From positions 37,247,703 to 37,311,702 of the forward strand of contig CP154954.1 in the NCBI GenBank assembly GCA_039621445.1: a DNA stretch of 64,000 nucleotides, in the 5' to 3' direction. A program made the translations under genes and the position numbers. The stretch is from Euglena gracilis. Lineage: Eukaryota. Shown piece by piece: positions 14,700-50,989 of this stretch; position 1 is the first letter of the stretch, and each line of letters begins with the position of its first letter. The notes below the pieces were generated by a model that was given only the letters and a program-made list of their open reading frames with translations, had not been told where the DNA came from and did not search any database.

Positions 14700-16117
14700 C
14701 GCCCCCCCCTCCCACCCCAAGGCGTGCCCAACCCCGTCCCCACCACAGCCCACCCAGCACCATTCACTTTCGGCCTCCAACCTCAATCGCCACGATCCCG
14801 AGCTGCCTTTCGTCCCCTTCTCCCGTCCTCTTTTGTCCCCTTTCCATCCCCTCCCTGGCTTTCCCTCCATGGTTCCACATTTGCGATCCAGGTCTTCAAC
14901 TATCCTCATTGCATTCACAAAGTTCATGGGTGCGGGACCTCTGCAAGGATGGAGATATCGAGTCAAATCCGGGGCCGACTTCACCTTCGGATCCTGGGGC
15001 AGCTTTCATGGCGGTGAATCAATCAGCTGCGGTCATCAACCTAGCGCCTCCACCACCGTCCGCCTCCTCCTCTGCTTCCGCACCGGCAGGACCAAACCAA
15101 CGGGCACGTAAGCGAAGAGCTGAGCGCGGTCCAGATTCCTCAGATTCCGAGGAAGAGGGCCCAGGCCTTTTCCATTGCCCGTTTCCCCACTGCTGCAAGT
15201 CCCTCCGACACAGCTTTCAGGGTTGGAACACAAAGCGGCTCGCCACAAACCATGTAGCAATGGTCCACGTCGCCGCAGGAGAGATGCCTTCGTCTGTTTG
15301 GCTTCGGGACGCACAACGCTGGGTGTGTGGACATTGCCTCAAGCTCCTCCCAGAAGGCAAACGGTGTGCAGGTGAGAATTGCTACCGAGTGCGACCGGAC
15401 TCCACCCCAACCCGTCTCCCTCCTGCAAGCCACCCACCACTAGCCCATGCAGCCGTGAGCTCATCCTCAAGCAACCGCATGCCTCCATCCACGCCATTGG
15501 ACGCACCGAATGCGCTTATGTCATCAGCAATTCACGAGATTCTGTCCACCACAAGGCCTCTGTTCCGGCACATCCCGCGTGCGGCTGTCACATTGTGGGG
15601 TGTGGCCTGGGCTGAGCTGCAACAGCGCCTCTGCTCTGAACGTTCGTGGGAGGCACTCCGAGACTGGGCCCTGTTCCAAAAGGTGACCCTCTGGTCGCCT
15701 CGAGGTGGCAAGGGCCACAAGGGACAAGCCGCCCAACTCATCAGATCACGAGTTGATCGCTTCAAGGCAGGAGACCTGGCTTCTTTGTGGGACGAGTTTC
15801 GCCAAGGCATCCCTCGGCCAGACCGCAAGAAGAAAAAAAGCACGGCATTTCCATCCCTGGAGGACAAAGTGGACAGGCTGCAGGAAGCCCCATTCCTGAA
15901 CACGCTGCGGGGCTTGATGGAAGATGGAGCATTTGGCAAGGCAGTGCGCCATCTCATGTCTGATGGGTTGCACGATCCGTTGGACCACAAGGTGCAGGCA
16001 AAGCTCAGAGACCTGCATCCCAGAAGGCCAGAAGTCATCGTGGCGGAGCCTGTCTCCAAAGTGTTTCCATTCCCGAAGGAGGAATCCTCTCAAGAGCAAC
16101 ATGACTTGAATAAGTAA
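14642..16117 (+). CDS. E1 ORF, N-terminal part: 2A peptide, C2H2 zinc finger, pre-RT region (frameshifted to next ORF)
   Basis: WVRDLCKDGDIESNPGP (core 14951-14977); CPFPHC...HVAMVH; WVCGHC; LRDLHP motif. Confidence 0.8.
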   Translation: MSPGGPVPPHGAAAVPTAGSPPPPTPRRAQPRPHHSPPSTIHFRPPTSIATIPSCLSSPSPVLFCPLSIPSLAFPPWFHICDPGLQLSSLHSQSSWVRDLCKDGDIESNPGPTSPSDPGAAFMAVNQSAAVINLAPPPPSASSSASAPAGPNQRARKRRAERGPDSSDSEEEGPGLFHCPFPHCCKSLRHSFQGWNTKRLATNHVAMVHVAAGEMPSSVWLRDAQRWVCGHCLKLLPEGKRCAGENCYRVRPDSTPTRLPPASHPPLAHAAVSSSSSNRMPPSTPLDAPNALMSSAIHEILSTTRPLFRHIPRAAVTLWGVAWAELQQRLCSERSWEALRDWALFQKVTLWSPRGGKGHKGQAAQLIRSRVDRFKAGDLASLWDEFRQGIPRPDRKKKKSTAFPSLEDKVDRLQEAPFLNTLRGLMEDGAFGKAVRHLMSDGLHDPLDHKVQAKLRDLHPRRPEVIVAEPVSKVFPFPKEESSQEQHDLNK

Positions 16118-16125
16118 GTTTCTCC

Positions 16126-18534
16126 GTGAGACGTTACTCTCTTTTCCAAGAGCAGCCGCAGCAGGCCCAGATGGACTCCGACCCCAACCTCCAGGACGTC
16201 GTGCGTGTGGACGCCGGTGCAGCGGCAATGGTGTTGGCAGCGCTGCGCACGTTCTCCAAAGCGGCCCTGGAAGGGTCACTGCCAGCACAAGCAATGCCAT
16301 TCATCTCATCGGCCAGCTTGATTCCATTGCGGAAGGACGGCCCCAGTGGCAGTCTGAACATTCGCCCCATTGCAGTGGGGAACACCCTCCGCCGCTTTGT
16401 GGGCAAGTTCGCCATGACCTCACCGTGTGTCAAGCAACGGGCATCAGAGCTGCACCCGCATCAATGCGGAGTCACCACCGAAGGAGCTTGTGAGACCATA
16501 GCCCAAGGGGTGCAATCATTTGCAGAACACGGCCAAGGAGACACATGGGCTATCCTGCAAGTGGACCTACAGAACGCGTTCAACGCAATTGACCGGCAAG
16601 CCCTCCTGAAAGCAGTCCGCAATCGGGCCCCAGAGCTTGAGGCATGGGCACGTTTGTCTTACGCACAGCATTCCGCCCTCTACAACCATGGACACCGTAT
16701 GACCAGTGAGCAAGGAGTGCAGCAAGGAGACCCTTTGGGTCCCCTCTTCTTTGCATTGGCGTGGCAAGATGTGGTCCTGGCGCTGCCCAAAGGTTTGAAG
16801 ATGAACGTGTGGTATCTGGATGATGGTCACCTCGTGGGTTCCATGGACACCTTGGCCGCAGCTTTGGCAACCATCAGCGTGAGTTCTGCACATCTGGGCG
16901 TGCATCTCAACCTCCAAAAATGTCGCCTGTGGGGTCCTGCACAGACACCGACATCGGATGGAAACCATTTCGATTTGTTGCGATCAATCCCCCGAGTACC
17001 TTGGATGCCAGACCATGGGCTGCGGGTCCTCGGCTTCCCAGTGGAACACCCGCTTTCAACATCCTTCCGCAAAGCCGAGATGCAAGGGGCAGTGGACAAG
17101 CTCCAAGAAGCATGCCACGTCCTCACCAACCTGGGAGATCCTCAGGTTGAGCATGTGCTCTTGCGTTACTGTCTTGATGCCTGCAAGGTGATGCATTTCC
17201 TACGTACCATGAACATGGACACCCTACAAGAGCCAATCCAAGCAGCGGCGCGGATCATCCGGAAGACATGGGATGACATCATGGGCCAGCCAGCTTCAAA
17301 TGATGCACAATGGACACAGTGTTCGCTCCCTCTACGCTTGGCCGGTCTCGGGGTGAAGGATCCCCTCGTCCTCCAAGCACCAGCCAGAATGGCAGGGATT
17401 CTATGTGCACAACAGCGGTCACAACCGTTGAGGTTTCCGCCCGAGGCTTGTGCCTTGCCCCCTGATTTCAAGAAGGTGGCTGTGGATCTGCGCGGCACAC
17501 TCGGCCCTCAGTTCGAGCCACTGCCAGATTGGATTGAGAAGAATCAACCATCGGACGTAGAAGAAGACCACAGAAGGCAACAGTGGTGGACAGACAAAGT
17601 GCACCAAGCAAGGAAAGAAGCTTTGAAGAACATCTTGCCACAACGAGACAAATGCCGCCTCCGACTACAATCGATGCCCCATACAACCGCCTGGCTCCAA
17701 ACGATACCAAACAAAGGCATGGGAACCAAAATCCCAGCAACAAAGTACCGCCTCCTCCTCCGATGGTGGCTCGGTGCCAAGGTCCTCCCGGGCTCGTCTG
17801 GTGCTCCTTGCCCCCTGTGTGGAGACTCCATGGATCCCTTTGGGGACCACCTGCTATGCTGCAAAAAGAACAAACTTGTGCAACGTCACAACGCTGTGCG
17901 GGACGCACTGGCAATGGTCCTCAGAGAGCATGGAGTGCACACCAAGACAGAGGTGGCTATCGGTGGGAAGAGGCGCCCAGCGGATGTGGCCCTGCAAGGG
18001 GTTGACCCTGTCGGGCCGTTGGCAGTCGACCTCGTAGTGTTCCACCCCCTCCGGAAGGATTTGTCGTGGGACGAGGACATTGCTTTAAGGAACATGGCAG
18101 CAATGGAACACAAGAAGGTCACAAAGAACCAACCTGTCTGTGAAGCCGCAGGATGGTTATTCAGCCCCCTGTCTTTCCATCCGTGGTCGGGCTTGGGCCC
18201 ATTGGGGTCTGGTCTCCTCGGCCGCTTGGTGAAGCAAGCCCTCGGTGACAAGCAAGGATGGGCAAGGCAGCACCAGGCCGCAGACATTTGGCAACGTATA
18301 TCCGCAACCTTGATGGCCTTTGTGGCTGAACAGCTTTCTGCCGCCGCTACAACCAGAGGGCATGAGGAATTACCTCCAACGGCCACGCCGCAAGAGACGC
18401 TGACGAGAACCAGGAGCATACAAGGAGCCACCGCAGTGGCGGCGGTGGACATGGAAGGATGGCAAAGAGTGCGCCAAGCCGAGGATGGGACCCTTGTCGG
18501 CCCCATTCGCATCCAGTGCACCCGCCCGAGGTGA
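16126..18534 (+). CDS. E1 reverse transcriptase plus restriction-like endonuclease
   Basis: IRPIAVG, DLQNAFN, GVQQGDPLGP, WYLDDG; CPLC..DHLLCC knuckle; RHN, RPADV, AVDL RLE motifs. Confidence 0.93.
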   Translation: MRRYSLFQEQPQQAQMDSDPNLQDVVRVDAGAAAMVLAALRTFSKAALEGSLPAQAMPFISSASLIPLRKDGPSGSLNIRPIAVGNTLRRFVGKFAMTSPCVKQRASELHPHQCGVTTEGACETIAQGVQSFAEHGQGDTWAILQVDLQNAFNAIDRQALLKAVRNRAPELEAWARLSYAQHSALYNHGHRMTSEQGVQQGDPLGPLFFALAWQDVVLALPKGLKMNVWYLDDGHLVGSMDTLAAALATISVSSAHLGVHLNLQKCRLWGPAQTPTSDGNHFDLLRSIPRVPWMPDHGLRVLGFPVEHPLSTSFRKAEMQGAVDKLQEACHVLTNLGDPQVEHVLLRYCLDACKVMHFLRTMNMDTLQEPIQAAARIIRKTWDDIMGQPASNDAQWTQCSLPLRLAGLGVKDPLVLQAPARMAGILCAQQRSQPLRFPPEACALPPDFKKVAVDLRGTLGPQFEPLPDWIEKNQPSDVEEDHRRQQWWTDKVHQARKEALKNILPQRDKCRLRLQSMPHTTAWLQTIPNKGMGTKIPATKYRLLLRWWLGAKVLPGSSGAPCPLCGDSMDPFGDHLLCCKKNKLVQRHNAVRDALAMVLREHGVHTKTEVAIGGKRRPADVALQGVDPVGPLAVDLVVFHPLRKDLSWDEDIALRNMAAMEHKKVTKNQPVCEAAGWLFSPLSFHPWSGLGPLGSGLLGRLVKQALGDKQGWARQHQAADIWQRISATLMAFVAEQLSAAATTRGHEELPPTATPQETLTRTRSIQGATAVAAVDMEGWQRVRQAEDGTLVGPIRIQCTRPR

Positions 18535-18760
18535 GACCCCTCGGAAGAGGACATGGTAGCACCATCTCCGACACAAAAAAAATAGAAAAGGGCCCACACC
18601 CCTCTGGGTAAGGCCATCGAGAATCGAAGTGAAAGCGCCCAAGTGACAGGCGGGTGCAACGGCTCGCGGTGACCCGTCCCGACGGCAAAGAACAGCACGC
18701 GGACACGGGCGACACGCCCGCACGGGCGACGCGCGGGCACGACACGCGCGAAACACGTGC

Positions 18761-18900
18761 GAGCCGTGCCGAGCCGTGCCGAGCCGTGCCGAGCCGTGCC
18801 GAGCCGTGCCGAGCCGTGCCGAGCCGTGCCGAGCCGTGCCGAGCCGTGCCGAGCCGTGCCGAGCCGTGCCGAGCCGTGCCGAGCCGTGCCGAGCCGTGCC
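18761..18900 (+). repeat. (GAGCCGTGCC)14 3' tail of E1
   Basis: 14 perfect 10-mer units directly before the TSD. Confidence 0.95.
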
Positions 18901-18915
18901 TTAATTCTAGATTAA

Positions 18916-18941
18916 ACTTTCTGAGTGTCTATTTTTTTTCG
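18916..18941 (+). ncRNA. Euglenid spliced-leader exon copy (26 nt) at the 5' end of E2
   Basis: ACTTTCTGAGTGTCTATTTTTTTTCG matches the Euglena SL exon as recalled; not followed by a GT donor. Confidence 0.9.
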
Positions 18942-19094
18942 TTCGCATATCATGTCGGACAAGTGAAAGCCCCTGGTGGGGTATGTTTTGAAGCCCGAAG
19001 ACATTGTTGGACAAAACCTCAGGTGTGAATTAGTGATCACTGTCAAGTACAAGTTCAAGCAAGATTCAAGTTCAAGAAGCTCGAGCAGTCCAAC

Positions 19095-21791
19095 TTGCTG
19101 TTGCAGATGCGTCACTGGGCCAGCAAGCAGGAGGGGAAGCAACAGCACCCCTCCAGCAGCTCCCAGAGCAGCGGGTGCAAAGCCACAGGCGACTCCAGCA
19201 GCAAGGGCAGAGCCAGAGGCCGCCCCAGCAGCAGGAGTATAGCCACAGGCAGCCCCAGCAGCCAAGTTGTACTGACCATGGCACCATGTCGATCATCGAC
19301 CTTTGTCAAGACATTGTTAAGACAGGGACTTCCATGCCACATCTTTGCCTTGTTGTTGTTGCATTCCCCAGGGGAAATGAAAACACATGGGACACTGGGT
19401 CTGTCAAAGTGGGGGATGTACCCCCTCCCCAGTCACATCTTTCCCATTGCATCTTCCCCAGTGACTCACAATTGCCTGTACAGTTCAAATCTGGTTGGGA
19501 AATCCCACCGACATTTGCGACCAGAAAAATCCCAGCAGAAGTGTATGTTTGCACTGTCAGCTGGGAAATGCCAGCGACATCAACATGACCATCAGTTGAA
19601 GGGGAAATCCCAGCAGCATTTGCAGCAGGGACATTACCATCAGTATTTGCTGCCTGAAAAGCCCCACCATCTGCCAGCAGAATGCCAGCACCACCTGCTG
19701 CAGGAAAAATCCCAGCAGCAGTTGCAACAGGAACAATCCCAACATGAAGCAACAAGCCCCCAATCAAGATCCAGCCCCAGGAGGCTGAGCCAAAGGGGAG
19801 AAATAAAACCACTGGGTCCAAAGTGGGTGATGTCCCCCCCACCCAGTCACACTGTTCCCTGTGCATCCTACATTGTCTTGGCAAATGCTCTTTGCCCTCA
19901 CCATGCGCAGGAGGACACCAGCAGCTGGCACCATTTTACAAACATTGAGCCAGAACCCAAGCTGCGTTCCGTTTTTCCGGCAGAAACCCAGCCACACTTC
20001 CGCGTCGGCTCACTTTCTTCTGCCGCACACGCGCCAAAAACCTTCCAAGAGCTCCCCAGGGCTGCATGCACTGCTCCTGGCGCAAAAAAGCCAGACAAGA
20101 AGCGTCGCTCGTCTTGTCTCTTCAGCGCAACACGGAGAAAAGCTACAGCAGCAATGCACCACTGCCGGTCGGGCAGAGGCGAGGACCTGCTGACGTTGGG
20201 CGACGTGGAGGAGAACCCAGGACCCGCCCCCTTGGGAGGTCCCGTGGCAGGAACCATGGATATTGACTTGTCCACGGACCCCACACGTGCGGTGGGATTC
20301 TTGTTAGCCACAACGCCGGTTCCCCCTTCCGCTCTAGGCCCACTTGAGGACACCTCGACGCAGGACGCCCGGGACCTTCAACAACTTCTGCAGACCCTCC
20401 TGAGCCGACCACCACCGGAAGCCGCTCTCCCCATAGATGGTCCAAGAGCCACGACTCGCGGCCCTTCACAGCCTTGGGTAATTTCCGATCGAGTACCCGG
20501 ACTGACGGGTAGAGGCGGGCTCCCCAGTTGCGGTGATGTTGAGGAAAACCCGGGCCCGAGAACGGGGTGGCCAAAAAGAGGCCGAAAACACAGCCGGCCG
20601 GCTCAAAACATTGATACCGTGGCTTGCTTGGGGCCAGAGATCTCGGTGGCCATTGACGTTGATGACGCGGCCCCTGCCCCGGCGGCGTCGTCCGCTCCTT
20701 TGCAGGGGGCGATGGACACCGATGGCCCCACTTTGCCTTTCGTGCCCGGATGCCGACGGGAAGGAACACCCCTTTCTCAGCCCTGCCCTTTGCTCGAGCC
20801 GACCTGGGATGCCATTTCGCATGACCTCAGGGGGACCATCGCTCACATCCCGCGGGGTGCGGTGCAGGCGGTGGCTCAAATGTACGCAATTCTACTGAGA
20901 GACTACAACCGGCGCCCCTCGTGGGAGTCGTTGCACGCGCTGTGGTGTATGCCGAAGGCGGTGCTGGCACCCTTGGCACGCGCCGGCAGAAACCATTGGG
21001 CACAACTAGGGAAAGCCATCGGAGCCAGGGCACGCGCCTATCTCCTGCAACCAGTCGCAACCTCTTGGCAGCAGTCACAAAAGCCGGCCGCAAACCCTGT
21101 TTCCTCGGTGTCCACACGCTCCGCCGCAAGCAGAGCGGAAGAGGTCCAGACGGAACGCTTCATCCGCCGGATGGAAACGTTGGTGGCCAGAGGGGCTGTG
21201 GGGAAGGCCTGCCAGTTGCTCCTCTCCGAAGGAGTGCAGGACGCGGCTCATCCCGCCGTGCGTGAGAGATTACGCCGGATGCACCCAACAGAGGCGGAAC
21301 CCGGAAGGGGATCCACTTCGAGGTGGAAACCACTATCACGCAGCGACGATGTGGGAGACGACCGCCGTATGGTGAAACATGCAGTGCGTAGCTTCGGCCC
21401 GGAGTCTGCAGCAGGCCCCTCAGGACTTCGGCCTGAGCACCTGAAGGCCTTGCTCAGCGACGAGGCCGGGGGCTCGGCAGAGGATGTCCTGGATGAGTTG
21501 ACGGAGTTTGTCTTCGGGTGCGTGCTTGGGGGAATCCCCAATGGGGCAGCACAAGTGATGTGTGCTGCACGCCTGACCCCCCTCCGAAAAACCAAAACCG
21601 GGACAGGGGCACCCACAGACCCCGTGGGCAAGACATCCCCAGAAGAGGAGGGCACTCGGCCCATCGCAGCTAGGGAAACCCTGCGCCGCCTGGTGGCGAA
21701 AGTTCTAATGCGCCACCCGGAGGTCCGTCGGTCCTGGCCACAGCCCTACCTCAGCAAATGGGAGTGGGCGTACCTGATGCATGCGCTCTGA
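19095..21791 (+). CDS. E2 ORF N-terminal part: Q/H-rich region, two 2A peptides, start of RT
   Basis: GRGEDLLTLGDVEENPGP (core 20199-20225); GRGGLPSCGDVEENPGP (core 20532-20558); SAAGPSGLRPEHL; TRPIAARETLRRL. Confidence 0.85.
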   Translation: MLLQMRHWASKQEGKQQHPSSSSQSSGCKATGDSSSKGRARGRPSSRSIATGSPSSQVVLTMAPCRSSTFVKTLLRQGLPCHIFALLLLHSPGEMKTHGTLGLSKWGMYPLPSHIFPIASSPVTHNCLYSSNLVGKSHRHLRPEKSQQKCMFALSAGKCQRHQHDHQLKGKSQQHLQQGHYHQYLLPEKPHHLPAECQHHLLQEKSQQQLQQEQSQHEATSPQSRSSPRRLSQRGEIKPLGPKWVMSPPPSHTVPCASYIVLANALCPHHAQEDTSSWHHFTNIEPEPKLRSVFPAETQPHFRVGSLSSAAHAPKTFQELPRAACTAPGAKKPDKKRRSSCLFSATRRKATAAMHHCRSGRGEDLLTLGDVEENPGPAPLGGPVAGTMDIDLSTDPTRAVGFLLATTPVPPSALGPLEDTSTQDARDLQQLLQTLLSRPPPEAALPIDGPRATTRGPSQPWVISDRVPGLTGRGGLPSCGDVEENPGPRTGWPKRGRKHSRPAQNIDTVACLGPEISVAIDVDDAAPAPAASSAPLQGAMDTDGPTLPFVPGCRREGTPLSQPCPLLEPTWDAISHDLRGTIAHIPRGAVQAVAQMYAILLRDYNRRPSWESLHALWCMPKAVLAPLARAGRNHWAQLGKAIGARARAYLLQPVATSWQQSQKPAANPVSSVSTRSAASRAEEVQTERFIRRMETLVARGAVGKACQLLLSEGVQDAAHPAVRERLRRMHPTEAEPGRGSTSRWKPLSRSDDVGDDRRMVKHAVRSFGPESAAGPSGLRPEHLKALLSDEAGGSAEDVLDELTEFVFGCVLGGIPNGAAQVMCAARLTPLRKTKTGTGAPTDPVGKTSPEEEGTRPIAARETLRRLVAKVLMRHPEVRRSWPQPYLSKWEWAYLMHAL

Positions 21792-23713
21792 TAGGAATGG
21801 GTATCCAGCAGCTAGTGGACGGCCTGTCTCATGTTGGAAAGGCAGATTGGGGACTGCTCCAGCTGGATTTTTCAAACGCATTCAACTGCATCTCTCGAGA
21901 AAATTTGCTGGCAGAAGTCGCGGAGCGATGCCCCCCGCTGCTTCCATGGTTGGAGAGTTGTTACGCCCGCCATTCTCAGCTGTATCTCGGAAAAACATCA
22001 CTCCGAAGCAAGTCCGGTGTGCAGCAAGGGGACCCGTGTGGCCCGGCTGCCTTTGCCCTCGGCATACAGTCCCTCTTGGACAAGCTGCAAGGTATCGTGG
22101 GCTGGCAAGCCTGGTACCTGGATGATGCCCACATCATGGGCACGCCGGAACAGCTCGAAAGGGCAGTACGGCTGATCCTGAACGAGGGACCACAGATTGG
22201 TGTGGGACTCAACCTGACAAAGTGCAAACTCTGGGGGCCTGCATTTGTTGCTCGTGGAGAAGGCCTGCTTCAGGGCATCCCAGTGGAACCTTTCACACCC
22301 GGCTCTGGCATCCGTGCGCTAGGAGTGCCCGTCTGCCACCCGGCAGGACGCCCGGACTTTGCCACTGTCCTTTGGGAGGAGCGCCTCTCGGGAGTCCGGA
22401 AAGCGTGCGACCTGCTGCAATTGCTGCCGTCGCCGCACCTACAGTTCACGGTGCTCAGGCAATGCCTTGATGCATGCAAAGTAAACGACCTGCTTCGAAC
22501 CACACACCTCTCGGGAGCCAAGGCGCCATGCCATTCCTTTGCCACTCTCCTTCGGGACACAATGTCCGCAATCACCGCTCGCCCGCTGGATGATAAACAG
22601 TGGGCACAAGCCTCCCTGCCAGTCCGCCTGGGGGGGCTCGGGATCCGAGACCCAGAGGTATCCAGAGCACCGGCAAGGTGGGCGGCCATCCTTGACTTCC
22701 TCTCACGAGCGGATAGCACTCTGTGCCTACCCGAGGGTTGCCCCAAGCTCCCACGGGATTACGGAGAGACGGGCCTGGTGATCTCGGGCCTTACCAAAGG
22801 GGTGGCGCCTGTGGGTGACCTCCTAACGGACCCAAGCAAGGTGAGTTCCTTGTCTCCCTCAATGGTGAGACAAAAGTGGTGGACAGATGAGGTCCTCAAG
22901 GTCCGGGTGGACCTGCTTTTGGCTGGCCTTGTTGGAAATGACGCGGTCCGTTTCGCATGCCAGCGGAGGCCGCACGCCATGGCGTGGGCAGCGGTCAACC
23001 CCTCTGCCCCCCTGAAGACCCTCATCCCACCGGCAGAATTCAGAGCCCTGACTCAGTGGTCCTTGGGATGCCAAGTTTGCCCCACAACGACAGATGGCTC
23101 CTTGCCGGAATGTCCCCGCTGCCACCAACAAATGGATGTTGGAGGAAACCACCTTGTCTGCTGCCCCAAAAACAACACTTTGCGGCGACATGGTGCCCTC
23201 CAGACGTTCGTTTTGGACCTGGCGAGAAGGGCCGGTTTCATGGCTCGACGAGAAGAGGTGGCTGACAACCGGACAAGACCCGGAGATGTCTTCATCACGA
23301 GATTCGACGCGGACGGACCTGCAGCAGTGGATGTCACGGTCCGCCACCCGTTGCAACCAGCAAACCCGGTCTCCTCAAAGGACGCCTTAGCACGGTGGCA
23401 CGAACTACAAGAGGGAGACAAAGAACGCAAGTATGCAGCCACCTGCGAACGGCTGGGATGGACGTTCATCCCGTTTGTGGTTGATTGCTTCGGAGGGATG
23501 GGGGAGCGAGCGGCAGGATTCATATCCAAGTGCCTCCGCACTGTGTTGGCGCAGACCGATGTTCCTCAACGACGATCGTCAGAGGCCACGGTATGGCAAG
23601 CGCTGAGTCTAACGTTGGCCAGTGAATTGGCTCGCCAGCTGGCTTGGGGGGCAGTGGCGGAGCCATCAGGCGACGTTGATCTCACTACCCACACCCCATA
23701 TGCCACAGAGTAA
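21758..23713 (+). CDS. E2 RT plus RLE (continuation after a frameshift)
   Basis: LDFSNAFN, GVQQGDPCGP, WYLDDA, CPRC..NHLVCC, RRHG, RPGDV, AVDVTV, KERKY. Confidence 0.93.
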   Translation: MGVGVPDACALIGMGIQQLVDGLSHVGKADWGLLQLDFSNAFNCISRENLLAEVAERCPPLLPWLESCYARHSQLYLGKTSLRSKSGVQQGDPCGPAAFALGIQSLLDKLQGIVGWQAWYLDDAHIMGTPEQLERAVRLILNEGPQIGVGLNLTKCKLWGPAFVARGEGLLQGIPVEPFTPGSGIRALGVPVCHPAGRPDFATVLWEERLSGVRKACDLLQLLPSPHLQFTVLRQCLDACKVNDLLRTTHLSGAKAPCHSFATLLRDTMSAITARPLDDKQWAQASLPVRLGGLGIRDPEVSRAPARWAAILDFLSRADSTLCLPEGCPKLPRDYGETGLVISGLTKGVAPVGDLLTDPSKVSSLSPSMVRQKWWTDEVLKVRVDLLLAGLVGNDAVRFACQRRPHAMAWAAVNPSAPLKTLIPPAEFRALTQWSLGCQVCPTTTDGSLPECPRCHQQMDVGGNHLVCCPKNNTLRRHGALQTFVLDLARRAGFMARREEVADNRTRPGDVFITRFDADGPAAVDVTVRHPLQPANPVSSKDALARWHELQEGDKERKYAATCERLGWTFIPFVVDCFGGMGERAAGFISKCLRTVLAQTDVPQRRSSEATVWQALSLTLASELARQLAWGAVAEPSGDVDLTTHTPYATE

Positions 23714-24486
23714 AAAAAAGGGGGGGTCAGGGCGAACACCATGTAAACACCTGCGGCCGCTGAGGCCAAGCCAGGCAGCCTACACCGGCCACCAAGGGCC
23801 GGTATTGTTGGCTTTGTCCCGTTGACACAACATGGTAAGCACACCTGAGAGAAAGCCGAAAGGCCAGACGAACCCGAAACCTCCATTGAGCACACCGGGG
23901 AACAGCCTGCCCCCAACAAGGCCACCCCACCCCGCCTGCTCCATGCCACCTCACCCCTCGGGCCCTGGCCCCCACATGGCCGATTCTGGGTTCACCTGAC
24001 CACCTTACCCTGAGACTGTCGCTTCTGTACATAGCCTTACCCCCTGAACACGTCAAATCCAGTAGGCAGTGCCACTGGTCGGTGGACTTGGTTCGCCCCA
24101 CCACTGTAGTAGCATTAAATTTTAACACCAACCGTACGCATAACCAACCACAAGACTAATTAAACCAAAAAAACAAGCAAATCACACCTTGCAACGAATG
24201 GACCAAGTCTACAAAGACGTCCAAACCCTTACCGCACTGAAAACAGAGCCTTCCCTGCGCCAACTCCCCAAAACCTGAACTTGTCGCTGCCACAACCTCA
24301 ACACTCAACAGTCCCCATGGCCGTTCCATTGAACCTTTCCTGCCGCTGTACACTTTCCTCTCTCACTCGCTATCCCCCCTCCGTACTGTGCCCCTCACCG
24401 CCCTTCTACTTCACCCTCGACTCTCCCCGCTCCCACCGACGCCTGTGGATGCTGGTGGATTCCCAAAAAAAATTTAAATTGGTGGC

Positions 24487-24513
24487 ACTTTCTGAGTGTC
24501 TATTTTTTTTTCG
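24487..24513 (+). ncRNA. SL exon copy (T9 variant) at the 5' end of E3
   Basis: ACTTTCTGAGTGTCTATTTTTTTTTCG followed by the shared leader. Confidence 0.9.
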
Positions 24514-26280
24514 CATATCACATGTCGGACAAGTGAAAGCCCCACCAGGGGTATAGTTTGAAGCTCCGAGTTCGACAAACTGTGGCATTTCATGAGAAGG
24601 CGTTGGAGCCGAGACAGCAGAGAGGAGGATGAAGGAGAAGGTTTCCTTGAAGCAGATGAGTATGAGAACTATCTGAAACGCAGGTGGGGTTCTTCGTATG
24701 TGATGTGAATTTTTTGGCGTTTTTTGAATTTTTTTGTAAACAAAATGGTTGCTTTTAGGAGCATGAATAATCATTTTTTCTCATTGTCAGCATGAAAAAA
24801 TTCCCCGGTGGAGTTGGAGATTCTCCAAGTCCTCTCCATCAGAAAGTGCACATCCTGGAGCTCCGAAAGGATTTTATATGCGAATATATTTTATATGCCC
24901 AGAACGACCTCGCCAGCTGCGTTGGGAACAGAAGGAAGCTGACAGGAAAAGAAGAGCTGAGTACTGGGGAAGACAGACCAGAAGTCGCAGCAGAAGCCCT
25001 GACAGAAAGAGATTCAATGTTTAACGTGGTGGAAACCCTCCAGACAGGAGGAGTGCAGCTGAGTTCCCTCCAGACTGGAGGTGGCCTGACCAAGAGAGAC
25101 AGGTCAGAGATTCTTCTGCACAGAGAAGACCCCTGCAGCAGCAGCAGGAGTATGAGTAGCAGTTGGGAGACTACCCAGCACAGAGAAGACCCCTGCAGCA
25201 ACAGCAGGAGTTTGAGCAGCTGGAGAGAGACTACCCAGCACAGAGAAGAGCCCTGCAGCAGCAGGAGTATGGGCAGGAGAGAGAGTACCCTGCACAGAGA
25301 AGGTCAGACACTGTACATCTGCCATCTGGGGTTATTCCATGGACTACATTTTATCAACTGCCTCAGCCTTCTCCCAGTTTGTACTCCTCTGCTGCAGCAT
25401 CTGCCACAGGTCATCAAGTACCCCATCCCCAGTCTGTGATGTATACACCAGCAGCTGCAGCCACAGCAGGCCTTTCAGGACAAGCTGCAGTTTTTCCTGG
25501 CCAGGGCCAGACAATGTGTGGCCAGAACCAGATGTATATGACTCCCCAGCCTGTTTACTATGTGGACCCCTCTGGGGCAATGTCTGCAGACCTACCCTGG
25601 TGGAAGTACCAGCTGTTGATGGGCCATTCGGTGGGGCACAATGCCATCCCCCCAGGAACTGTCAACACCTCAGCAGCAGTGTCCTCTGCCCAGCCAGCCT
25701 CTGGAGGGCCTGGGGTCAGCATCCCCCCCCCTCCTTACCAAGAAGGAGGAGGAGCCAAAGCCATTCAGGGAGAGAAAAGGAGGACTGACAGCTCTGGAGC
25801 CTCAGCCTCCACATCAACAGCCTCCAGGGCCAAATCCTCTTCTGTTTCCTCATCAGACAGTGATGACAAGGAGTTGTTGGACTTGCTGAAAGAAAGGCGA
25901 CGTAAAAGGAAAGAACAGTAGCAAAAAAATGAAGAAGCGGACCACACACAGGAGAAGAAACATTCCCATTGTGTGGCTCAGTGCGTGCTGAAGACCCCCC
26001 CAAGATTTTCTGCAGCAAAAGTCCAGGAGAGGGGAAGATATACCCCCCCAACTGCAGTTGGAGAAAAACTCGGCCATGAGTGATTACCCCCCTTGCCCTG
26101 GAATTCGGGCCTGAGCAAGGACAAAGGGAATCCCAAACCCCAGTAATGGAAAAAGGTACCCCCACAAGGGAGAAAAAACCGGCGGTGCAAGAAAAAAGAC
26201 GGCCAGCACCAGGAGGCCCATACAAAATTTTCTCTGTCTTTGACACAGAGATTTGGAAAGTGGAAGGCCAGTGGTTAAAC
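24487..26280 (+). mobile_element. E3 5' part: SL-headed retroelement interrupted by the LTR element; Q-rich ORF fragments (25163-25921, 26080-26280)
   Basis: Removing 26281-40358 joins ...KVEGQWLN in frame to PTGVMFDEKC...; about 60-bp repeats encode DYPAQRRPLQQQQE. Confidence 0.8.
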
Positions 26281-33820: not shown

Positions 33821-34011
33821 GGAGATGAACCACTCCAGTGTCTGTACTGTACTGTACTGTAACTCGGGCTTGCACTTCTCTGTCGGGCTTTGCTGCTGTC
33901 AAGACCAACAAACTTCAATATTTCAATGACTTGAGTTGTAGGTTGGAACTTCAGGTAGTTCAAAGCTTGAACCCCACCAGGGGCTTTCAGTTGTCCCACA
34001 TGATATGCGAA

Positions 34012-34036
34012 CGAAAAAAAATAGACACTCAGAAAG
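34012..34036 (-). ncRNA. SL exon copy (25 of 26 nt) forming the 5' end of E4
   Basis: Reverse complement CTTTCTGAGTGTCTATTTTTTTTCG directly against the TSD. Confidence 0.9.
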
Positions 34037-36595: not shown

Positions 36596-36680
36596 TGTGG
36601 ATCGTGATCGATATTTTGAATTTTGCGAATGCGCATTTTGTGAAAAACGAGAACTGCATAATGAGGTTGATCCTCTTGGG

Positions 36681-39905: not shown

Positions 39906-39932
39906 GTAGGTTCGTAACCTACTCTGCTACCA
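39906..39932 (-). promoter_or_regulatory. Primer-binding site complementary to a tRNA 3' end (iMet-like CUCUGCUACCA); partial duplicate at 39857-39874
   Basis: TGGTAGCAGAG immediately after the 5' LTR. Confidence 0.8.
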
Positions 39933-40353: not shown

Positions 40354-40358
40354 TAAAC

Positions 40359-43300
40359 CCAACGGGCGTCATGTTTGACGAAAAATGCCGGGAGCCGAGG
40401 TCTGGTCCGCCCAATTCCCCGGAAAATGCTCCACTGCAGGAAACCTCTTTCAGCAGCTGGAAGAAAAAATTCCTGCATCAGCGGCAGGAGCGACGGCAGC
40501 AGGGGGGCACGCTGGTCCACGAGCGGGCGGCACGTAAATTGACCAAAGTCGTGGACCAATGGCAACAGATGGGACGAAATCGTGACATCCCGGCCAAGGG
40601 CCCTTGGGGGCTGCTTTTTTCTGGTGACATCAACCCCCTGCCTGGACCAACGGCGGGCCCGTGTGGTGAATGTGATCTCCTGCATGTCTTGGTGGAACAA
40701 CAAGTACAAGAGATGTTCAAAATACGGGCGGATGAGGAGCCTGCAAAAGGACCAGACGGGACGTCACCTCTCTTTCAGGAAAGAGAAGCCTTCTGGGTAC
40801 AGTGCACCCTGTGTGGGTGGTCAAGGCAAACAATAAATTCTGGGTGGTGCTTGTCCCACGTACAGCATTGTGCAGAATTACAAAACATTCTTTGCGGCCC
40901 GAGAAACACATTGCTGCAGGTGCCAGAAGAACACCTAGCCACAGGCAGGGAAGGTGTGGCTTTCAGCGGTGATGTCCCCCTGAACCCGTGCCCCAGGAAG
41001 GAATCTGAAGCTCACAAAAGAAAAGCACATGGCCATGGGAAAACTGGGCGGGAGAAGCTGTTCTGACCCATGGTGATGTGGAGCAGAATCCAGGGCCTGT
41101 GGAAGGCAGTATGGAAGTGGACTTGGGGGGGTGTCACTCCTTACAAGGACCGTGTCCCAGAGGTTTGCGCCCTTCATGGGATGAAATTGCACATGACCGA
41201 AGGACCACGTTGACAGTGATCCCCAGAGGAGCGCTGGGGGAAGTGGCACGAACCCTGACCCTCTTGTTCAGACGATTACGACAAGAAGGCTCTTGGGAGG
41301 CCTTTCACTCTTTGTGGTGTTTTCCAAAGGCAGTCCTGGCAAGCACTGGTCAGGGTGGACGATCCCACTGGGCCAGAATTGGGCGGCTGCTGTGTACCAG
41401 AGCCAAGGCGTACCTGGAAAAAGACGTCCATGAATGCTGGGAGTCGTCCAGGCCGTCGGAAGCGAATTTCGGATCCAGCGTCAAAACCCGATCAGCAAAA
41501 AGTAAAGAGGAGGAAATCCAACAAGAAGCCTTTCTCAACAGAATGCAGAAACTGGTGGAAAGAGGGGCAACGGCAAAGGCGCGTCAGGCAATGTTGTCAG
41601 ACGGAGTCCAAGATGCAAATGATGCAAAAATTCGTGAGCGTTTACGTCTGCTTCACCCATCAGAAGATCCGCCCGGGAAATGGCCCCCCGATGGAAGAGT
41701 GCGCCTGCCAGTCCCTGAGGGACAAGAAGGAGACGCCCACATGAAAAAGGCCGTGAGACGGGCCATCCTGTCCTTCAAAAACGAAACAGCAGGAGGACCG
41801 AGCGGGCTGACCATCTCAAAACATTGATCTCCGCACAGGCTGCGGGCTGTGGTGATGATTTACTGGAAGAAATCTCCGCCTTTGTCTTCTCGGCAATCCA
41901 ACAAGGACTGCCTTTGGAAATGGGGTCCATCTTGGCAGGAGCACGACTGACGCCGTTGAGAAAGAAGAAACCACAAACAGATGCTGCCGGTAATGTGATG
42001 CTGCATACGGACAACAATTTGCAACACGAAGGAACCAGGCCAATTGCGGCAGGAGAAGTTTTAAGACGGTTGCTTGCCAAAGTTCTGTTAAAAGAAGCCA
42101 CTGTACGAAACACTCTGATTGACGGGCTGCCTGGGCAAGTCGGTGTAGGCCATTCTGACGCTTGTGCTCTCACCAGTATTGCACTTGCAACAAATTGTTC
42201 AAGGACTGCAAAAGGCAGGGAAAACAGAATGGGCTGTTCTGCAGCTGGATTTTGCAAACGCCTTCAATCAATTGAAACGGGAACCCATGTTACATCAAGT
42301 GCGACAGCAGGTACCACACATGACAGCTTGGACTGAATCATGCCATGGTTCACATTCCCCTTTGTATTGTGGAAACACAAGCCTGAGGTCCAAAACGGGA
42401 GTTCAACAAGGGGACCCTTGTGGCCCGGCTCTTTTCTGCATTGCGGTGCAACCTTTGGTCAACAAAATTGCAGAAATGGTGCCATGGCAGTGCTGGTACC
42501 TGGACGACTGCCATCTAATTGGATCCATGGAACAGCTGGATCGTGTGGTGCGCATGCTTTTGGCAGACGGTCCTGCGATTGGGGTCAGTCTGAACATGGA
42601 CAAATGTCGGCTGTGGGGCCCAGCCGTCAATGATGCCTTTCGCAGATTGCCACAGGGAAGCAGTGTGTTGCAACGAATACCGGCAACATCCTTTGTGGAG
42701 GGATCTGGAATCAAAGCCCTGGGGATACCTGTGACGTACCCGGGAGATGACACGTTTGCGCGATCCATTTGGCAGGACAGATTGAAAGCTTGTGAAAAAT
42801 TGTGCTACTTGCTGCAGTTCATTCCTTGGCCACATTCGTTTCCACCTGTTGCGCCAGTGCATTGCCAGCTGCAAAGTAAATGATCTTCTACGAGGAACAC
42901 CGCTGAACTCTTCTGAAGATATGGTACGGCTCTTCTCTGCCCTGGTCCGTGACAGTTTGAGCAATTGCAGAAGACAGCTCACTGAAGCTCGATGGGAGCA
43001 ATCCACCATCCCCATTCGACTGGGAGGCCTGGGCCTGCACGATGCAATAAAGACCAGGCCAGTGGCCAGATGGGCTGCTATTTTGGATTTCTGCAAAAGA
43101 GCAGAACACAGTGTCTCGTTCCCGAAAGAATTGAGCTATTACCATCAGACTTCGTTCTGACAGGTCGCACAGTCGAACAAATCACGGGGGAGAGTCATTT
43201 GACAACTTTGATACTACAGGACTCCAATCGGATTCCTCACCTGGGGAAAGTGGAAAGTTCCCAGAAATTCTGGAACGACAAGCTCTCTGAGAAACGAGGA

Positions 43301-44100
43301 GCTGACTTGGTAACGCATTCCACCGGGGCTGACAAGGTGCGTATTTTGAGCCAACAGAAACCTCATGCATTGGCGTGGGTGGCAGCAAACCCTTGTGCAG
43401 CAAAAAAGACATTGATGCCCCCAGGTGAATTCCGAGCAGTTCTACAATGGACTCTGGGATGACTGTTGTAGCTCCACACGAAGGTTTGGAGGCAAAGTGT
43501 CCACGATGTGAGACAGTGATGGATGATCAAGGGAATCACCTGGTTTGTTGCACAAAAAACAATTTGGCACGGCGACATGCAGGAATTCAAAACTTCATCC
43601 TACAGCTGGCACAGGCGGCAGGCTATACTGCTCGGCGTGAAGAGGGCACTGGAGATGGAAGACGACCTGGGGATGTTTTCATCACTAGGTTCGATGCAAA
43701 CGGCCCGGCTGCAATAGATGTCTCAGTGCGGCATCCACTGGCGCCGTCCCACCCAGTGACTGATCAAAGTTGGGAACGCTGGCATGAAAGACAGGAGAAA
43801 GAAAAAGTGACAAAGTACAAAGATGTATGCAGCAGGCTGGGATGGTCACTTGTGCCCCTGGTCCTGGATTATTTTGGTGGCATTGGTGATGAAGGCAGAA
43901 TCTTTTTGGGGACCTGCATCCGAGCCATCCTGGGTCAGAAGGAGCCCTGGGAAAGAAGATCCTGCGAAGCAGAGTGCTGGCAAGGACAAAGCATTGTGTT
44001 GGCCCGAGAAGTGGGTCGACAACTGTCGTGGGCTCAATGCCTGGGATCTGAAGATATGCAAAGTCCTGTTCTGGCGCATCAACCTTATAATCTGGACTAA
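40359..44100 (+). pseudogene. E3 3' part: frameshifted polyprotein with three 2A-like motifs, RT and RLE
   Basis: GDINPLPGP (40623-40649), GDVPLNPCP (40968-40994), GDVEQNPGP (41072-41098); LDFANAFN, QQGDPCGP, WYLDDC, CPRC..NHLVCC, RPGDV. Confidence 0.88.
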
Positions 44101-47100: not shown

Positions 47101-47704
47101 GCGCATCAACCTTATAATCTGGACTAAAGCACAACCTGCAGGAGGACACAAAGAATGTTTCCCGCAGGCTGCTGAAAATCAAAGGCTACTGCTGAGACCG
47201 TCCCATCACAATGATGAACAGCAGTATAGTATGTAAGCAACATACCACAATTTGGGACAGCAGCCAGAACCGACAAAGATCGGAAATGCATATGACGCAC
47301 AAAAAAACGGTCTGAGAATACTTCCTCAGCTCCTCCAGTCCCCCCATCGCCGGCCCATCACCCTTGCTCTATGTACTTTGCACTTTGCGGTCCACTGGCC
47401 ACCCAGGACCTCTTCCAGCCATGACCAACAACATCGGGAAAACAAGGCTTGGGACACAAAGAGCTCTGTCACAACAAACAGGTTGCATTTGCATTGCACA
47501 CGATTCTCATCGTATCCCAGAAACGATGAGACACAAAAGCCTGGTCTGAAAACACTTCATCTTCACGCAAGAAGACAAAACAGGATTTGGCCCACCATGC
47601 TGGCCCATCCTGGCACCATGAAAGGCACCACACCCGCCACCTTAGATGACCGACAAAGATCGAAAATATGACACATGAGGCACAAAAAAGATCGACAACG
47701 GCCC
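43875..47704 (+). repeat. Tandem and complex duplications of the E3 3' end
   Basis: About 870-bp units at 43875-44744 and 44745-45618; partial copies at 45619-45735 and 47025-47704; 45738-46050 also repeated at about 46704-47020. Confidence 0.85.
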
Positions 47705-48190: not shown

Positions 48191-48399
48191 TTGGAACACT
48201 GTTGATTGCCCAAGAGCTAGAGTGTCTAAAAAAATATTAAATTACAATTAAAGTAAAAGATTAAATTAATTATCATAACCGCCTGCGGACCTTCAAATCC
48301 AGGAGGCTGTGCCACTGGTCGGTGGATTCGGTTCACCCCACCACCGTTCTCGCTTTCTGGTCCTCTTAATTCTAGCAAAAAAAGGCCTGAAAACGCCCC

Positions 48400-50989
48400 C
48401 TCAACACCACCACTGGCCTGAAAAGGCCCTGGGCCTGAAAAGGCCCCATCTGCTACAGGGCCTGACAAGGCCCGTCCAGCCAGTGGGCCTGAAAAGCCCC
48501 CCCCCACCTTTGGGCCTTCAAAGGCACCTCCATTTGGGCCTGCAAAGGCCCCTCATCTTGGGCTTCCAAAGGCCCCCCCTTTGGTCCTGCAAAGGCCCCC
48601 CATCTGCCAACCATTAAGTGCTACTTTCAGCTCCAAGGTATTCTTTTCTGTGTTCTGCATTGCATCCCAAACCTTTGACCAATTGAAGTGGCAAACCCCC
48701 AGTTTTCACAGCACATGTTACACCAAAAGCTGTGACACATTTTGCAGCAGTTTTGACTTGACATTGAAAAACATTTTGCCACCCCAACCCCTCAATGACA
48801 CTTTTTGCAGCAGTTTGACTTGAAATTGAAAAACATTTTGCCACCTCAACCCCTCAGTGACACCGATTCACCCCAGTGTCCTGCAAAGTCACTGGGCCAG
48901 CAAAGGCCCCCCTGTGAAACCATTTCGATCTGTTGCACCATTTTGCCCCAGTGGCCTAAAGGCCATGGGCCTGCAAAGGTCCCCTTCCAACACCATTTTG
49001 CTCCAGTGGCCTGCAAAGACCCTGGGCCTGCAAAGGCCCCCCTGTGACATCTTTTGGTCCTGTTGCAGCATTTTGTCCCAGTGGCCTGCAAAGGCCATGG
49101 GCCTTCAAAGGCCCCCTCTGCCACCATTTTTGCTCTCAGCTTGAAAAGCCCCCCGACGAACTGGCGAACAACGTTCCTCCACATTTTGGCCTGCAACAGT
49201 GGCCACCCAGCCAGACAGCACATCCACTTTTTGGTCTGCAACAGTGGCCCCGCAGCCAGCCAGTTCTGCCAGATTCTGCTGGCCTTCAACCTTCCCTCAG
49301 CAATATGAATTTGACAACCCCCAGGTTACCTCTCTGCTGACCGGAAAAGACCACCCAACGTCGGCAAACAAAGAAAAGTGCTTGTGCCTTACACTCCTGC
49401 GAAATACAGGACACAGCCTACACTGGCAGCATCGGGGGGAGCGGGCCGAGGTCGGTCTTTACTCAGCTGCGGGGACATTGAAAGTAACCCCGGACCTCCT
49501 ACAGACCCACCATTTGTTCCGTGTGAGGATATTGACATGGCGCCAGCATCACAAATCTCCATCCCTCCTGCTGCACCACCGCCCGCAGAGCCCCCGTCGG
49601 TGGCGGGTGAGGACGTTGACATGGCGCCAGCATCACAAATTTCCATCCCGAGGGCCGGCTTCGATCGGTACCATCTTCTGGACGCGCGGCTTCGAGTCCC
49701 GATGAGCTAAACTCCGATCCAGGGGTGCACGGGACTTGAACCAGCCATGGCATACGGCGCTGCCAGGCGGGGTAAGGAATGGCTGCCGTATGGCGGGAAG
49801 TTCCGATGGCGCCGAGGTAGAAATCAGCAACCAGAGGCTCGACCCTGGCGTGCCTGATGGGTAAGGGCCGGCGAACCATAGATTCAACGGCGTTTGCCCA
49901 CCTGACGTGTCACGATTAAACCATTGCGGCTTCGGCCGAGCAGTGACACCAAAGACAAGCAACCCCTATCAAGCACGCCATCGCCAAGCATCAGGAGCTG
50001 AGGCAAGGGATGGAGGACTTCGAGTGCCTCGAACCCTAGGGCTAATGCCCCCTGGCGGAGTGTAGCTCCACATCCGAGAAAGTGAAACGCTTGGGTCCAG
50101 CAAGTTTTTAAAAAAAAGTCGGCCCACCACCGTTGGAGGAGATTTGAGAGCAAAAAAGGGCATTTGTCATGGATTGCTACGGCGGCATGCGACAGGAAGC
50201 GCGCTCCTTGATGGCCACCCTCCTCAAGGCCCTTTTGGGGCAGCGGGAAGGGTGACATCGGCCGCGGAAGCAGGCATTTGGCAAGGCCTTCCTTCACACT
50301 AATGAGAGAAATCAGCAGATAGCTCGTTCGGAGCTTGTATTCTTCCAAATATGAGATCACCCTGTCTTCCGCCCACTCACCATATTCTGTCTGAAGGCCT
50401 TTGAGCTCTCAACAAAAATCACCAACATTGACCTCTCACCTGCCGTTTACACCCCAAGTTCAGATTACAAAATGAGCAAAGAAGGCACAACTCAGTAACC
50501 CCTAGTAACCCCTTGAGCAGAGCCACACGCCGAGCCAAAGACATATCAACGGATCACAAAGACGCGGAGAGAAGCAAAACACACAACAGCCAAAAACCCG
50601 ACACAAACACGCCATCCCGTTTCAAAAGAGGTACAAACGCCCCCTCCCCGCCCAATATACATTGAAGGTGACCTTTGCTCATCTTCCTCTAACCACTAAC
50701 CTCCGCACCCTGAACAAGTATCACTCAGCACTCTTTTGTACATTACACCCAGAGTATAAACAACCCGCGACGTGTGGCGGCACAGGGAGTAACAAGGGGG
50801 TTCCTCTTGTGGCGAGGGCCAAAAGAGAAGTTTCCCTGGCCCGGGGCACGATTTGGGTGAAGCTGTGCTACCTACCGTGTGCTTCTGCAAAAAAGGCGAG
50901 GGCGAAAAGAGACGTTTACCTGGGCCCGGGGGACGGTTTCGGTGAAGCTGTGCTACCCACCGTGTGTTCGTTATCACTAAAAAAAAAAA
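48400..50989 (+). mobile_element. E6: internally deleted, chimeric copy of the E4 family ending in poly(A); 5' boundary uncertain
   Basis: About 49230-49645 matches the E4 2A region (SLLSCGDIESNPGP, core 49471-49497); 50160-50400 and 50500-50965 match the E4 C-terminus and 3' UTR; RT absent. Confidence 0.8.

Follow-up and report, generated by a model that had tools for sequence, protein, structure and literature searches.

StopGo (2A) peptides have been documented in several clades of retrotransposons that lack long terminal repeats (non-LTR elements), namely Rex1, CR1, L2, L2A, and Crack of metazoans and Ingi/L1Tc of trypanosomes, all of which, in the portions of the sources that treat them, are of the type carrying an apurinic/apyrimidinic endonuclease (APE) (Odon 2013, PMC3708506; bioRxiv 2026.06.17.732966). 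The relevant passages of the former describe 2A-like sites as confined, with one exception, to the N-terminal part of ORF2p (Odon 2013, PMC3708506). A preprint of September 2026 reports 2A in 580 contigs bearing a reverse transcriptase (RT), ~79% of them non-LTR-like, with no split in its main text between APE and restriction-like endonuclease (RLE) types. Among RLE-type elements, the CRE clade (SLACS, CZAR, CRE1, and CRE2) is characterized by insertion at a fixed position in spliced-leader (SL) RNA genes and usually by a poly-A tail, and the description of this clade in PMC12278014, in the sections that concern it, contains no mention of 2A. Passages and titles of the R2 literature contain none either. 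The stretch of DNA analyzed here, referred to below as the window, comprises 64,000 nucleotides of the Euglena gracilis genome (assembly GCA_039621445.1, contig CP154954.1, positions 37,247,703 to 37,311,702 of the forward strand) and includes six copies, E1–E6, of related RLE-type retrotransposons. We consider it probable (about 0.8) that six 2A motifs present in these copies are genuine StopGo recoding sites of a single RLE-type clade, with ribosomes skipping at NPG/P (in peptides, the slash marks the proposed point of skipping).

When the entire window was scanned in all six frames with the pattern D[VI]ExNPGP, exactly six matches were found, spread over five element copies. The peptide of E1 is WVRDLCKDGDIESNPG/P (14927..14977, plus strand; motif WVRDLCKDGDIESNPGP, NPGP codons 14966-14977). 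E2 includes two such peptides, GRGEDLLTLGDVEENPG/P (20172..20225, plus strand; motif GRGEDLLTLGDVEENPGP, NPGP codons 20214-20225) and, 111 codons past the first, TGRGGLPSCGDVEENPG/P (20505..20558, plus strand; motif GRGGLPSCGDVEENPGP, NPGP codons 20547-20558). The remaining three are GRGRSLLTCGDIESNPG/P in E4 (32762..32815, minus strand; motif GRGRSLLTCGDIESNPGP, NPGP codons 32762-32773), WAGEAVLTHGDVEQNPG/P in E3 (41045..41098, plus strand; motif AVLTHGDVEQNPGP, NPGP codons 41087-41098), and GRGRSLLSCGDIESNPG/P in E6 (49444..49497, plus strand; motif SLLSCGDIESNPGP, NPGP codons 49486-49497). The peptides listed in the original prediction, which had been made from the letters of the window, were exact, and the coordinates given there (14951, 20199, 20532, 32788, 41072, and 49471) mark where the codon for the leading G of GD(V/I)ExNPGP starts. 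The observation of six motifs is thus confirmed, whereas the interpretation then placed on it is partly supported. Absent from that list were two decayed 2A-like sites of E3, GLLFSGDINPLPGP (40608-40649, plus strand) and VAFSGDVPLNPCP (40956-40994, plus strand), which read GDINPLPGP and GDVPLNPCP and are both located 5' of the intact site. Four NPGP tetrapeptides not preceded by D(V/I)Ex constitute the background in the window (at 7072 and 59869 on the plus strand, and at 43859 and 12623 on the minus strand).

The number of D(V/I)ExNPGP motifs expected by chance from the six-frame residue frequencies is 1.6e-4 per window, and no motif appeared in 300 sequences simulated with a second-order Markov model. 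Each of the six motifs is in frame and precedes the RT on its N-terminal side. Their position upstream of RT-type sequence, proposed earlier for every copy, was borne out by tblastn for E1, E2, E3, and E4; E6 is internally deleted and only its 5' and 3' pieces are kept. The open frame around the 2A site of E4 extends for 379 codons before it and 1162 codons after it, and in E1 and E2 the frame is likewise open before and after 2A until a later frameshift. In E3 and E6, both of which are degraded copies, the upstream open frame covers just 30 and 61 codons before 2A, respectively.

All six sites retain the fixed residues of the motif (G, D, E, N, P, G, and P, seven in all) with varying synonymous codons (GGA, GGC, GGT, or GGG for Gly, and CCG, CCA, CCC, or CCT for Pro), and the N-terminal regions around the sites cannot be aligned between lineages. 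The peptides come in two flavors, at times within one protein, GRGxxLLxCGD... and W-x-R-D-L-x-x-x-GD(I/V)ExNPGP. The latter is found in E1 and in two public relatives, P0016 (site 1) and P0139, and the GRGxxLLxCGD context recurs among relatives. The E4 peptide aligns over its full length (~18 residues) with the remnant of a C-terminal tag in the PDB chain 7p2p_B (E 6.6e-4), and also with 8ut1_A, differing from the remnant, ...GSGEGRGSLLTCGDVEENPG, by one added R and by changes of V to I and of E to S. We take this remnant to be a T2A-type viral 2A, the name under which the likeness had been put forward in the original prediction; the comparison was made with the E4 peptide, and the WxRDL flavor of E1 lies outside it.

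The only intact element is E4 (28790..34036, minus strand), which was retrotransposed as a complete unit measuring 5,247 bp and in which a target-site duplication (TSD) is present and LTRs are absent, as in non-LTR elements. The TSD is a 12-bp direct duplication, AAAGCCAAATAT, at 28778-28789 and 34037-34048. A stop-to-stop frame of 1540 codons (29276-33898) places 2A at residue 376, the YLDD motif at 1003, and the CCHC zinc knuckle at 1342, with the nuclease motif beyond. The RT core (30776..31282, minus strand; residues 873-1041 of P0001) matches Pfam RVT_1 with E 3.6e-10 and 40.3 bits against a cut-off of 29.6, and this family is above cut-off in E1 and E2 as well, and also in the four long relatives P0007, P0008, P0015, and P0016. 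The zinc knuckle and the RLE (RH...E...RPGD...DVTV...K) occupy 29549..29875 on the minus strand, as delineated by conserved alignment columns and by profile and fold matches to R2. In a family alignment (A1) of 29 sequences, from which a profile of 1000 positions was built, three knuckle positions (C786, H796, and C800) do not vary and the fourth, C783, is kept in 90% or more of the sequences; in the nuclease, H809 does not vary, and E830, R838, D856, and K886 likewise reach 90% conservation or more; the C-terminal CCHC and the RH/E/RP-D/D/K nuclease motif are conserved across the family. The best matches of the profile are the R2 proteins 9nl3_A (3.1e-39) and 9dou_A (5.3e-39), each in one stretch from the RT through the RLE up to position 941 of 1000, whereas LINE-1 ORF2p matches at 5e-14 over the RT alone. 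An AlphaFold model of E4 residues 560-1540 (predicted local distance difference test score, pLDDT, 90.0; predicted template modeling score 0.89) retrieved R2 structures at ranks 1-7 in Foldseek (E 1.5e-22 to 1.1e-17, TM 0.48-0.58), with LINE-1 ORF2p and Prp8 ranking after them. No Pfam match to the APE domain (Exo_endo_phos) was found in proteins P0001-P0005 (E<=0.1) or in P0007, P0008, P0015, and P0016 (E<=0.05). Because of the conserved CCHC and nuclease, the R2 profile and fold matches, and the absence of an APE domain, the elements are single-ORF (open reading frame) RLE-type non-LTR retrotransposons of R2-like architecture, in agreement with the type originally predicted.

An exhaustive HMMER search yielded 9,986 relatives at E<=1e-3, of which 708 also passed E<=1e-30. 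The public relatives examined number 185, comprising 36 from an initial search and the best 150 of the HMMER relatives, with one protein common to both. The strict motif is present in ten of them, one to four times per ORF and always N-terminal of the RT. Many gene calls are truncated at the N terminus, and the 2A count depends on the N-terminal sequence present: strict 2A is carried by 9 of the 39 proteins with an N-terminal extension of at least 150 residues, by 1 of 32 with 40-149 residues, and by none of the 59 with fewer than 40 residues or of the 55 that start inside the RT or later. Among the extensions of at least 150 residues, 2A is found in 9 of 12 relatives at least 29.5% identical to E4 and in 0 of 27 more distant ones. 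The protein clusters of the relatives are annotated, as judged by cluster members in the protein atlas, as 'hypothetical protein' with RVT_1, with no informative names.

In a FastTree phylogeny of 119 rows (116 public proteins together with E1, E2, and E4), all 11 carrier rows fall within one clade of 23 rows (Shimodaira–Hasegawa-like support 100), and none of the 96 rows outside it carries 2A. This tree left out E3, E5, and E6, as well as 69 public proteins, the carriers P0139 and P0161 among them, that do not cover E4 residues 830-1440. The same split was obtained with IQ-TREE for 55 rows, those 23 and 32 of the 96 outgroup rows (Shimodaira–Hasegawa approximate likelihood-ratio support 100). 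Both trees consist of public relatives and window copies, with no named CRE, NeSL, R4, Hero, or Dualen references. Ten of the 12 clade members without the motif have fewer than 150 residues before the conserved N-terminal domain, and another member of the family, P0051, has GDVEQHPGP beside an intact site. Judged from these sequences, 2A is restricted to one clade. The several RLE-type families originally proposed are divergent sub-lineages of this clade, so that 2A appears to be a single old trait and not one that arose independently several times.

Amino-acid identity to E4, as measured by tblastn, is 26-36% for E1, 37-46% for E2, and 31-47% for E3, and the copies therefore represent old, distinct lineages. 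The motif residues are conserved at the amino-acid level through synonymous codon change; since they were kept in this manner across ORFs only 26-47% identical, selection acted on the motif during the active life of each lineage. The two mutated sites of E3 next to an intact one are the pattern expected after selection ends.

The segments delimited by 2A sites can be recognized more clearly in the relatives. An SLBP_RNA_bind domain is located before the first 2A site of P0007 (residues 40-101; Pfam E 2e-13, above cut-off), with a sub-threshold counterpart in P0008 (residues 153-189), and may serve as an RNA binder similar to ORF1. A Zn-finger-like segment of the relatives is also found in E3, where tblastn detected it when the N-terminal portions of P0008 and P0016 served as queries. 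Another segment, of ~140 residues and with an invariant NPPF, is present in P0007, P0008, P0015, P0016, P0054, and P0056, either between 2A sites or at the N terminus of the gene call. All four scanned examples of it match Pfam Dam slightly below cut-off (2.8e-7 to 2.2e-6), while a profile of the segment yielded nothing meaningful among PDB sequences. The structural model of this segment has a pLDDT of 75, with the 2A tail as its disordered part, and its best fold matches are weak (E 8e-3 to 7.5e-2, none <=1e-3); the top ones are all methyltransferases, the best of them cap-specific adenosine methyltransferases. Thus the model points weakly to a methyltransferase-like segment, a lead that is intriguing given that the element RNA would begin with the SL.

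The SL exon of E. gracilis (PMC6242988) is present three times in the window, each time as the first nucleotides of an element (E2, E3, and E4), and so occupies the 5' start of all three elements with an identifiable 5' end. Its presence marks the host as a euglenid, although the exon does not by itself single out a species, since metagenome loci have it joined to different introns. With the leader that follows, it extends over 18916-18982 in E2 (plus strand) and 24487-24543 in E3 (plus strand; SL 24487-24512, with two mismatches in the 24-mer). In E4, 25 of the 26 nt of the exon are present at 34012..34036 on the minus strand, with an exact 24-mer match, and the exon and leader together span 33971-34036. 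The conserved leader of ~41 nt contains a 4-codon upstream open reading frame (uORF) and a CCCC-TGGT-GGGG hairpin, and the first 66 nt of E2 and E4 are 97% identical, whereas their proteins are only ~40% identical. Genuine copies of the SL-RNA gene read CG/GTAT after the exon in seven of seven cases (six metagenome loci, L001-L006), with the remaining sequence different, whereas the element leaders read CG/TTCGCAT after the SL, so that the GT donor is missing. In the window's own species, whose SL-RNA genes lie outside this comparison, the leader may yet correspond to the intron of such a gene. Because the TSD of E4 lies outside the SL, the SL and the leader belong to the transposed unit. This 5' end may mean that a trans-spliced mRNA is the template of retrotransposition, or it may be a splice-dead module derived from SL RNA. 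No Rfam family reached the gathering threshold in the window, and for the E2 leader the sole hit was to an miRNA, at chance level (E 6.4).

From the observed motifs, their frame and position, the RLE architecture, the restriction to one clade, and the conservation at the amino-acid level, we infer skipping in the euglenid and the following roles for the upstream products. The element RNA would begin with the SL exon, and a scanning ribosome would initiate at the first main-frame AUG, located 223 nt (E4) or 192 nt (E2) from the start of the SL; in E4 this AUG comes after the 4-codon uORF. The poorly conserved N-terminal part would be translated first, the nascent chain would be released at ...GD(V/I)ExNPG/P without formation of the Gly-Pro bond, and translation would resume from the proline, yielding the RT-RLE as a separate polypeptide with Pro at its N terminus. 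The predicted products of E4 are 350 residues before NPG/P, followed by a 1162-residue RT-RLE; in E2, two products of 372 and 111 residues would precede the RT-RLE. In the fuller relatives, up to four sites would split the ORF into an SLBP-like RNA binder, a Zn-finger segment, a methyltransferase-like domain, and the RT-RLE, a multi-site arrangement that could substitute for a separate ORF1. StopGo is described as functional in every eukaryotic system tested, in the part of PMC12846837 that addresses this point, and a fusion through the 2A of foot-and-mouth disease virus yielded both activities in E. gracilis, according to the relevant passage of PMC8230907.

We can speculate further, at odds that seem to us somewhat short of even, that a deep euglenid RLE clade acquired StopGo once as a polyprotein system, with one SL-bearing mRNA giving rise to up to five products, among them the SLBP-like RNA binder, a Zn-finger protein, an NPPF methyltransferase with weak resemblance to cap-specific adenosine methyltransferase, and the RT-RLE, and with the SL leader being either the mark of an mRNA template or a splice-dead mimic of SL RNA that provides a translatable 5' end. 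Since the template must stay whole, such an RNA could not be resolved by trans-splicing in the way of host polycistrons, and StopGo would serve the element in place of multiple cistrons.

Several observations weigh against StopGo recoding by these elements. Of the five copies in the window that bear 2A, E4 alone has an ORF that is intact, and two members of the 2A clade, P0045 and P0013, have long N-terminal extensions with no motif. Contigs of four sequencing runs, whose RNA type was guessed, provide short, fragmentary, low-depth cover of parts of E4; one of them (record 31 of run X18) spans 32381-32828, including the 2A site, and skips one 84-bp repeat unit, with strand, 5' ends, and transcription not readable from the contigs, while contigs of three runs diverge at 28802, close to the 3' end of E4. 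The part of E4 upstream of 2A contains, inside the frame, a 102-bp tandem repeat in 5.8 copies (33077..33671, minus strand) that bears no sign of coding constraint. Although the ORF frame alone is open there, with 2 stops compared to 12 and 8 in the other frames, differences between repeat units are distributed as 88/132/95 over the three codon positions, and the codon pairs include 31 synonymous and 185 non-synonymous ones; accordingly, a folded upstream protein is not claimed for E4. Pfam detected no domain upstream of 2A in E2, E3, or E4. The 'upstream protein' of the window copies may thus be a mere leader, for which a regulatory role fits as well as a separating one. Moreover, most of the 2A-like peptides of retrotransposons that were tested in a recent preprint are described in its accessible part as cutting protein abundance rather than skipping cleanly (bioRxiv 2026.06.17.732966).

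One alternative, to which we would give roughly one chance in eight, is that the peptides act mainly as translational attenuators that stall or abort ribosomes and lower the output of RT-RLE, the upstream sequence of the window copies being a dispensable leader. The unconstrained repeat of E4 and the absence of upstream Pfam domains would be as expected, and the same section of the preprint gives a lower abundance for 59% of the ORF2p-associated and 70% of the ORF1p-associated 2A-like peptides tested (bioRxiv 2026.06.17.732966). However, the sites of the relatives flank domain-bearing segments and occur two to four times per ORF, an arrangement that is sensible for separation, all six window motifs are fully canonical, and attenuation and separation can coexist. 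It is less likely still that the motifs of the window are functionless relics of an ancestral feature in dead copies. E1 and E2 have one frameshift each, E3 has several in addition to its two decayed sites, and E6 has suffered an internal deletion, but E4 combines an intact frame of 1540 codons with a clean TSD and a complete SL leader, and synonymous change kept the motif across the divergent ORFs. Finally, the motifs could be coincidental or due to composition, or could be a conserved structural motif with no bearing on recoding. This reading would draw on nothing more than the generally high G+C and proline content of the N-terminal regions and is extremely improbable, a chance origin being effectively refuted by the expectation and the 0 of 300 simulations, by the alignment of ~18 residues with the T2A-type peptide, and by the recurrence of the motif one to four times in ten relatives, always N-terminal of the RT.

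The element copies themselves were defined by tblastn with the E4 protein, by ORF maps, and by comparison of the window with itself. The coding region of E1 (14468..18534, plus strand; RVT_1 E 6.5e-13) consists of two frames, 14468-16117 and 16114-18534, with the frameshift near 16115, and Zn-finger-like CPFPHC...H...H and CGHC...C motifs are located downstream of its 2A. Its 5' part includes a tandem repeat of 298 bp in two copies (14123-14718, plus strand), and its 3' tail consists of 14.6 copies of (CGTGCCGAGC) (18756..18900, plus strand), stopping 15 bp short of the SL of E2. E2 extends over 18916..24486 on the plus strand, with the SL exon at 18916-18941, the AUG at 19107, and the ORF in two frames (19029-21791 and 21674-23713) with a frameshift near 21725-21749. 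E3 is split. Its 5' part (24487..26280, plus strand), with the SL exon, the leader, and low-complexity frames, is ended by a 13.6-kb insertion, and its 3' part (40355..44100, plus strand), identified by tblastn with E4 and with N-terminal sequence of P0008 and P0016, includes the Zn-finger-like segment, three 2A sites, and remnants of the RT and RLE with several frameshifts. The 3' region of E3 (43875-47704) is a tandem duplication of ~870-bp units with 96% identity. No TSD was identified for E1, E2, or E3. The 3' ends lack poly-A; that of E1 is the repeat tail, whereas E2 and E4 end in unrelated short sequences.

The internally deleted E6 (49223..50879, plus strand) is an E4-like copy in which 49223-49647 and 50161-50879 match E4 with 81-85% DNA identity, so that ~425 bp remain from the 5' part and ~720 bp from the 3' part; its 3' end (50811-50966) is duplicated 1.8 times with a period of 85 bp. 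E5 (51001..53368, plus strand), detected by tblastn, is a 5'-truncated, degraded RT/RLE copy without 2A.

The insertion that splits E3 (26281-40354) is bounded by direct repeats of ~421 bp (26281-26701 and 39933-40354) that are 98.8% identical, and it has TG..CA-like ends and a 4-5-bp duplication (AAAC/TAAAC). It contains E4 as well as a frame of 1031 codons (36681-39776, minus strand) in which no Pfam family reached cut-off and one match was sub-threshold, and it is probably an LTR-type element. E1, E2, and E3, although of different sub-lineages, form a head-to-tail array in which each of the first two copies abuts, with its 3' end, the first SL nucleotide of the next one (18901-18916 and 24470-24487); this array may result from end-to-end template jumping during reverse transcription or from targeting of the SL sequence. 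An interstitial telomere-type array of 42 GGGTTA repeats (12472-12726) is located ~1.7 kb upstream of E1.

No paper that links 2A or NPGP with RLE-type elements was found in the main texts of the literature searched, while the supplements of PMC12338488 (Rao 2025), bioRxiv 2026.06.17.732966, and bioRxiv 2026.09.24.754024 may list some; nothing was found there on Euglena non-LTR elements with 2A. The proposed extension of 2A beyond APE-type elements holds insofar as the documented clades are all APE-type, but its margin is narrower than originally assumed, because the September 2026 preprint already reports its 580 contigs. Nor do the window elements belong to the clades already documented to carry 2A, an outcome that had been named as adverse to the original prediction, those clades being APE-type and the present elements RLE-type by architecture. 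The diverged natural peptides, of two flavors and evolved on euglenid ribosomes, are candidate co-expression tools for Euglena, an organism in which transgene expression is described as difficult (PMC8230907, in the passage concerned). Together with the SL 5' ends, they raise the question of how several proteins are obtained from one retrotransposon RNA in an organism dependent on trans-splicing.

Comparison with the CRE clade, as far as the available description of it goes, reveals a number of common features, since both groups are euglenozoan, RLE-type, and mostly single-ORF, with Zn-finger-like motifs, internal repeat regions, and an association with the SL. The 5' tandem repeats of E4 and E1 recall the internal repeat regions of CRE and also the 5' monomers of some LINEs. 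However, the designation 'CRE-like' in the original prediction is not supported. CRE elements sit inside SL-RNA genes, whereas the window elements carry the SL exon as their own first 25-26 nt, without the GT donor; no fixed insertion in SL-RNA genes is seen, the 12-bp TSD of E4 being in non-SL DNA, and the 3' ends are devoid of poly-A. The R2 elements (9nl3, 9dou, 9nl2, 8gh6, and 8ibw), which provide the best profile and fold match, share the single ORF with the RT followed by CCHC and a PD-(D/E)xK-type nuclease. In turn, sequence identity to R2 is 14-15%, a search for a Myb domain gave none, and rDNA is not the target; the likeness is one of architecture, profile, and fold. T2A-type viral peptides function in the context of RNA-virus polyproteins, whereas the peptide of E4 occurs in that of a cellular retrotransposon.

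The APE-type 2A elements have in common with those of the window the same GD(V/I)ExNPGP signature, its location in the N-terminal region of a long RT ORF, and the association with a single ORF, and the hosts of L1Tc and Ingi are Euglenozoa as well. They differ in having an N-terminal APE and no RLE, in place of the C-terminal CCHC and RLE found here with no APE domain. The presence of 2A in a deep clade of the RLE type, the 'ancient architecture', as well as in the 'young' APE-type elements would mean that the 2A strategy is not tied to one class of endonuclease. In contrast to the single 2A region of APE-type elements, the present clade has up to four 2A sites per ORF, delimiting accessory domains, which suggests that StopGo is able to replace a separate ORF1 by a true polyprotein.

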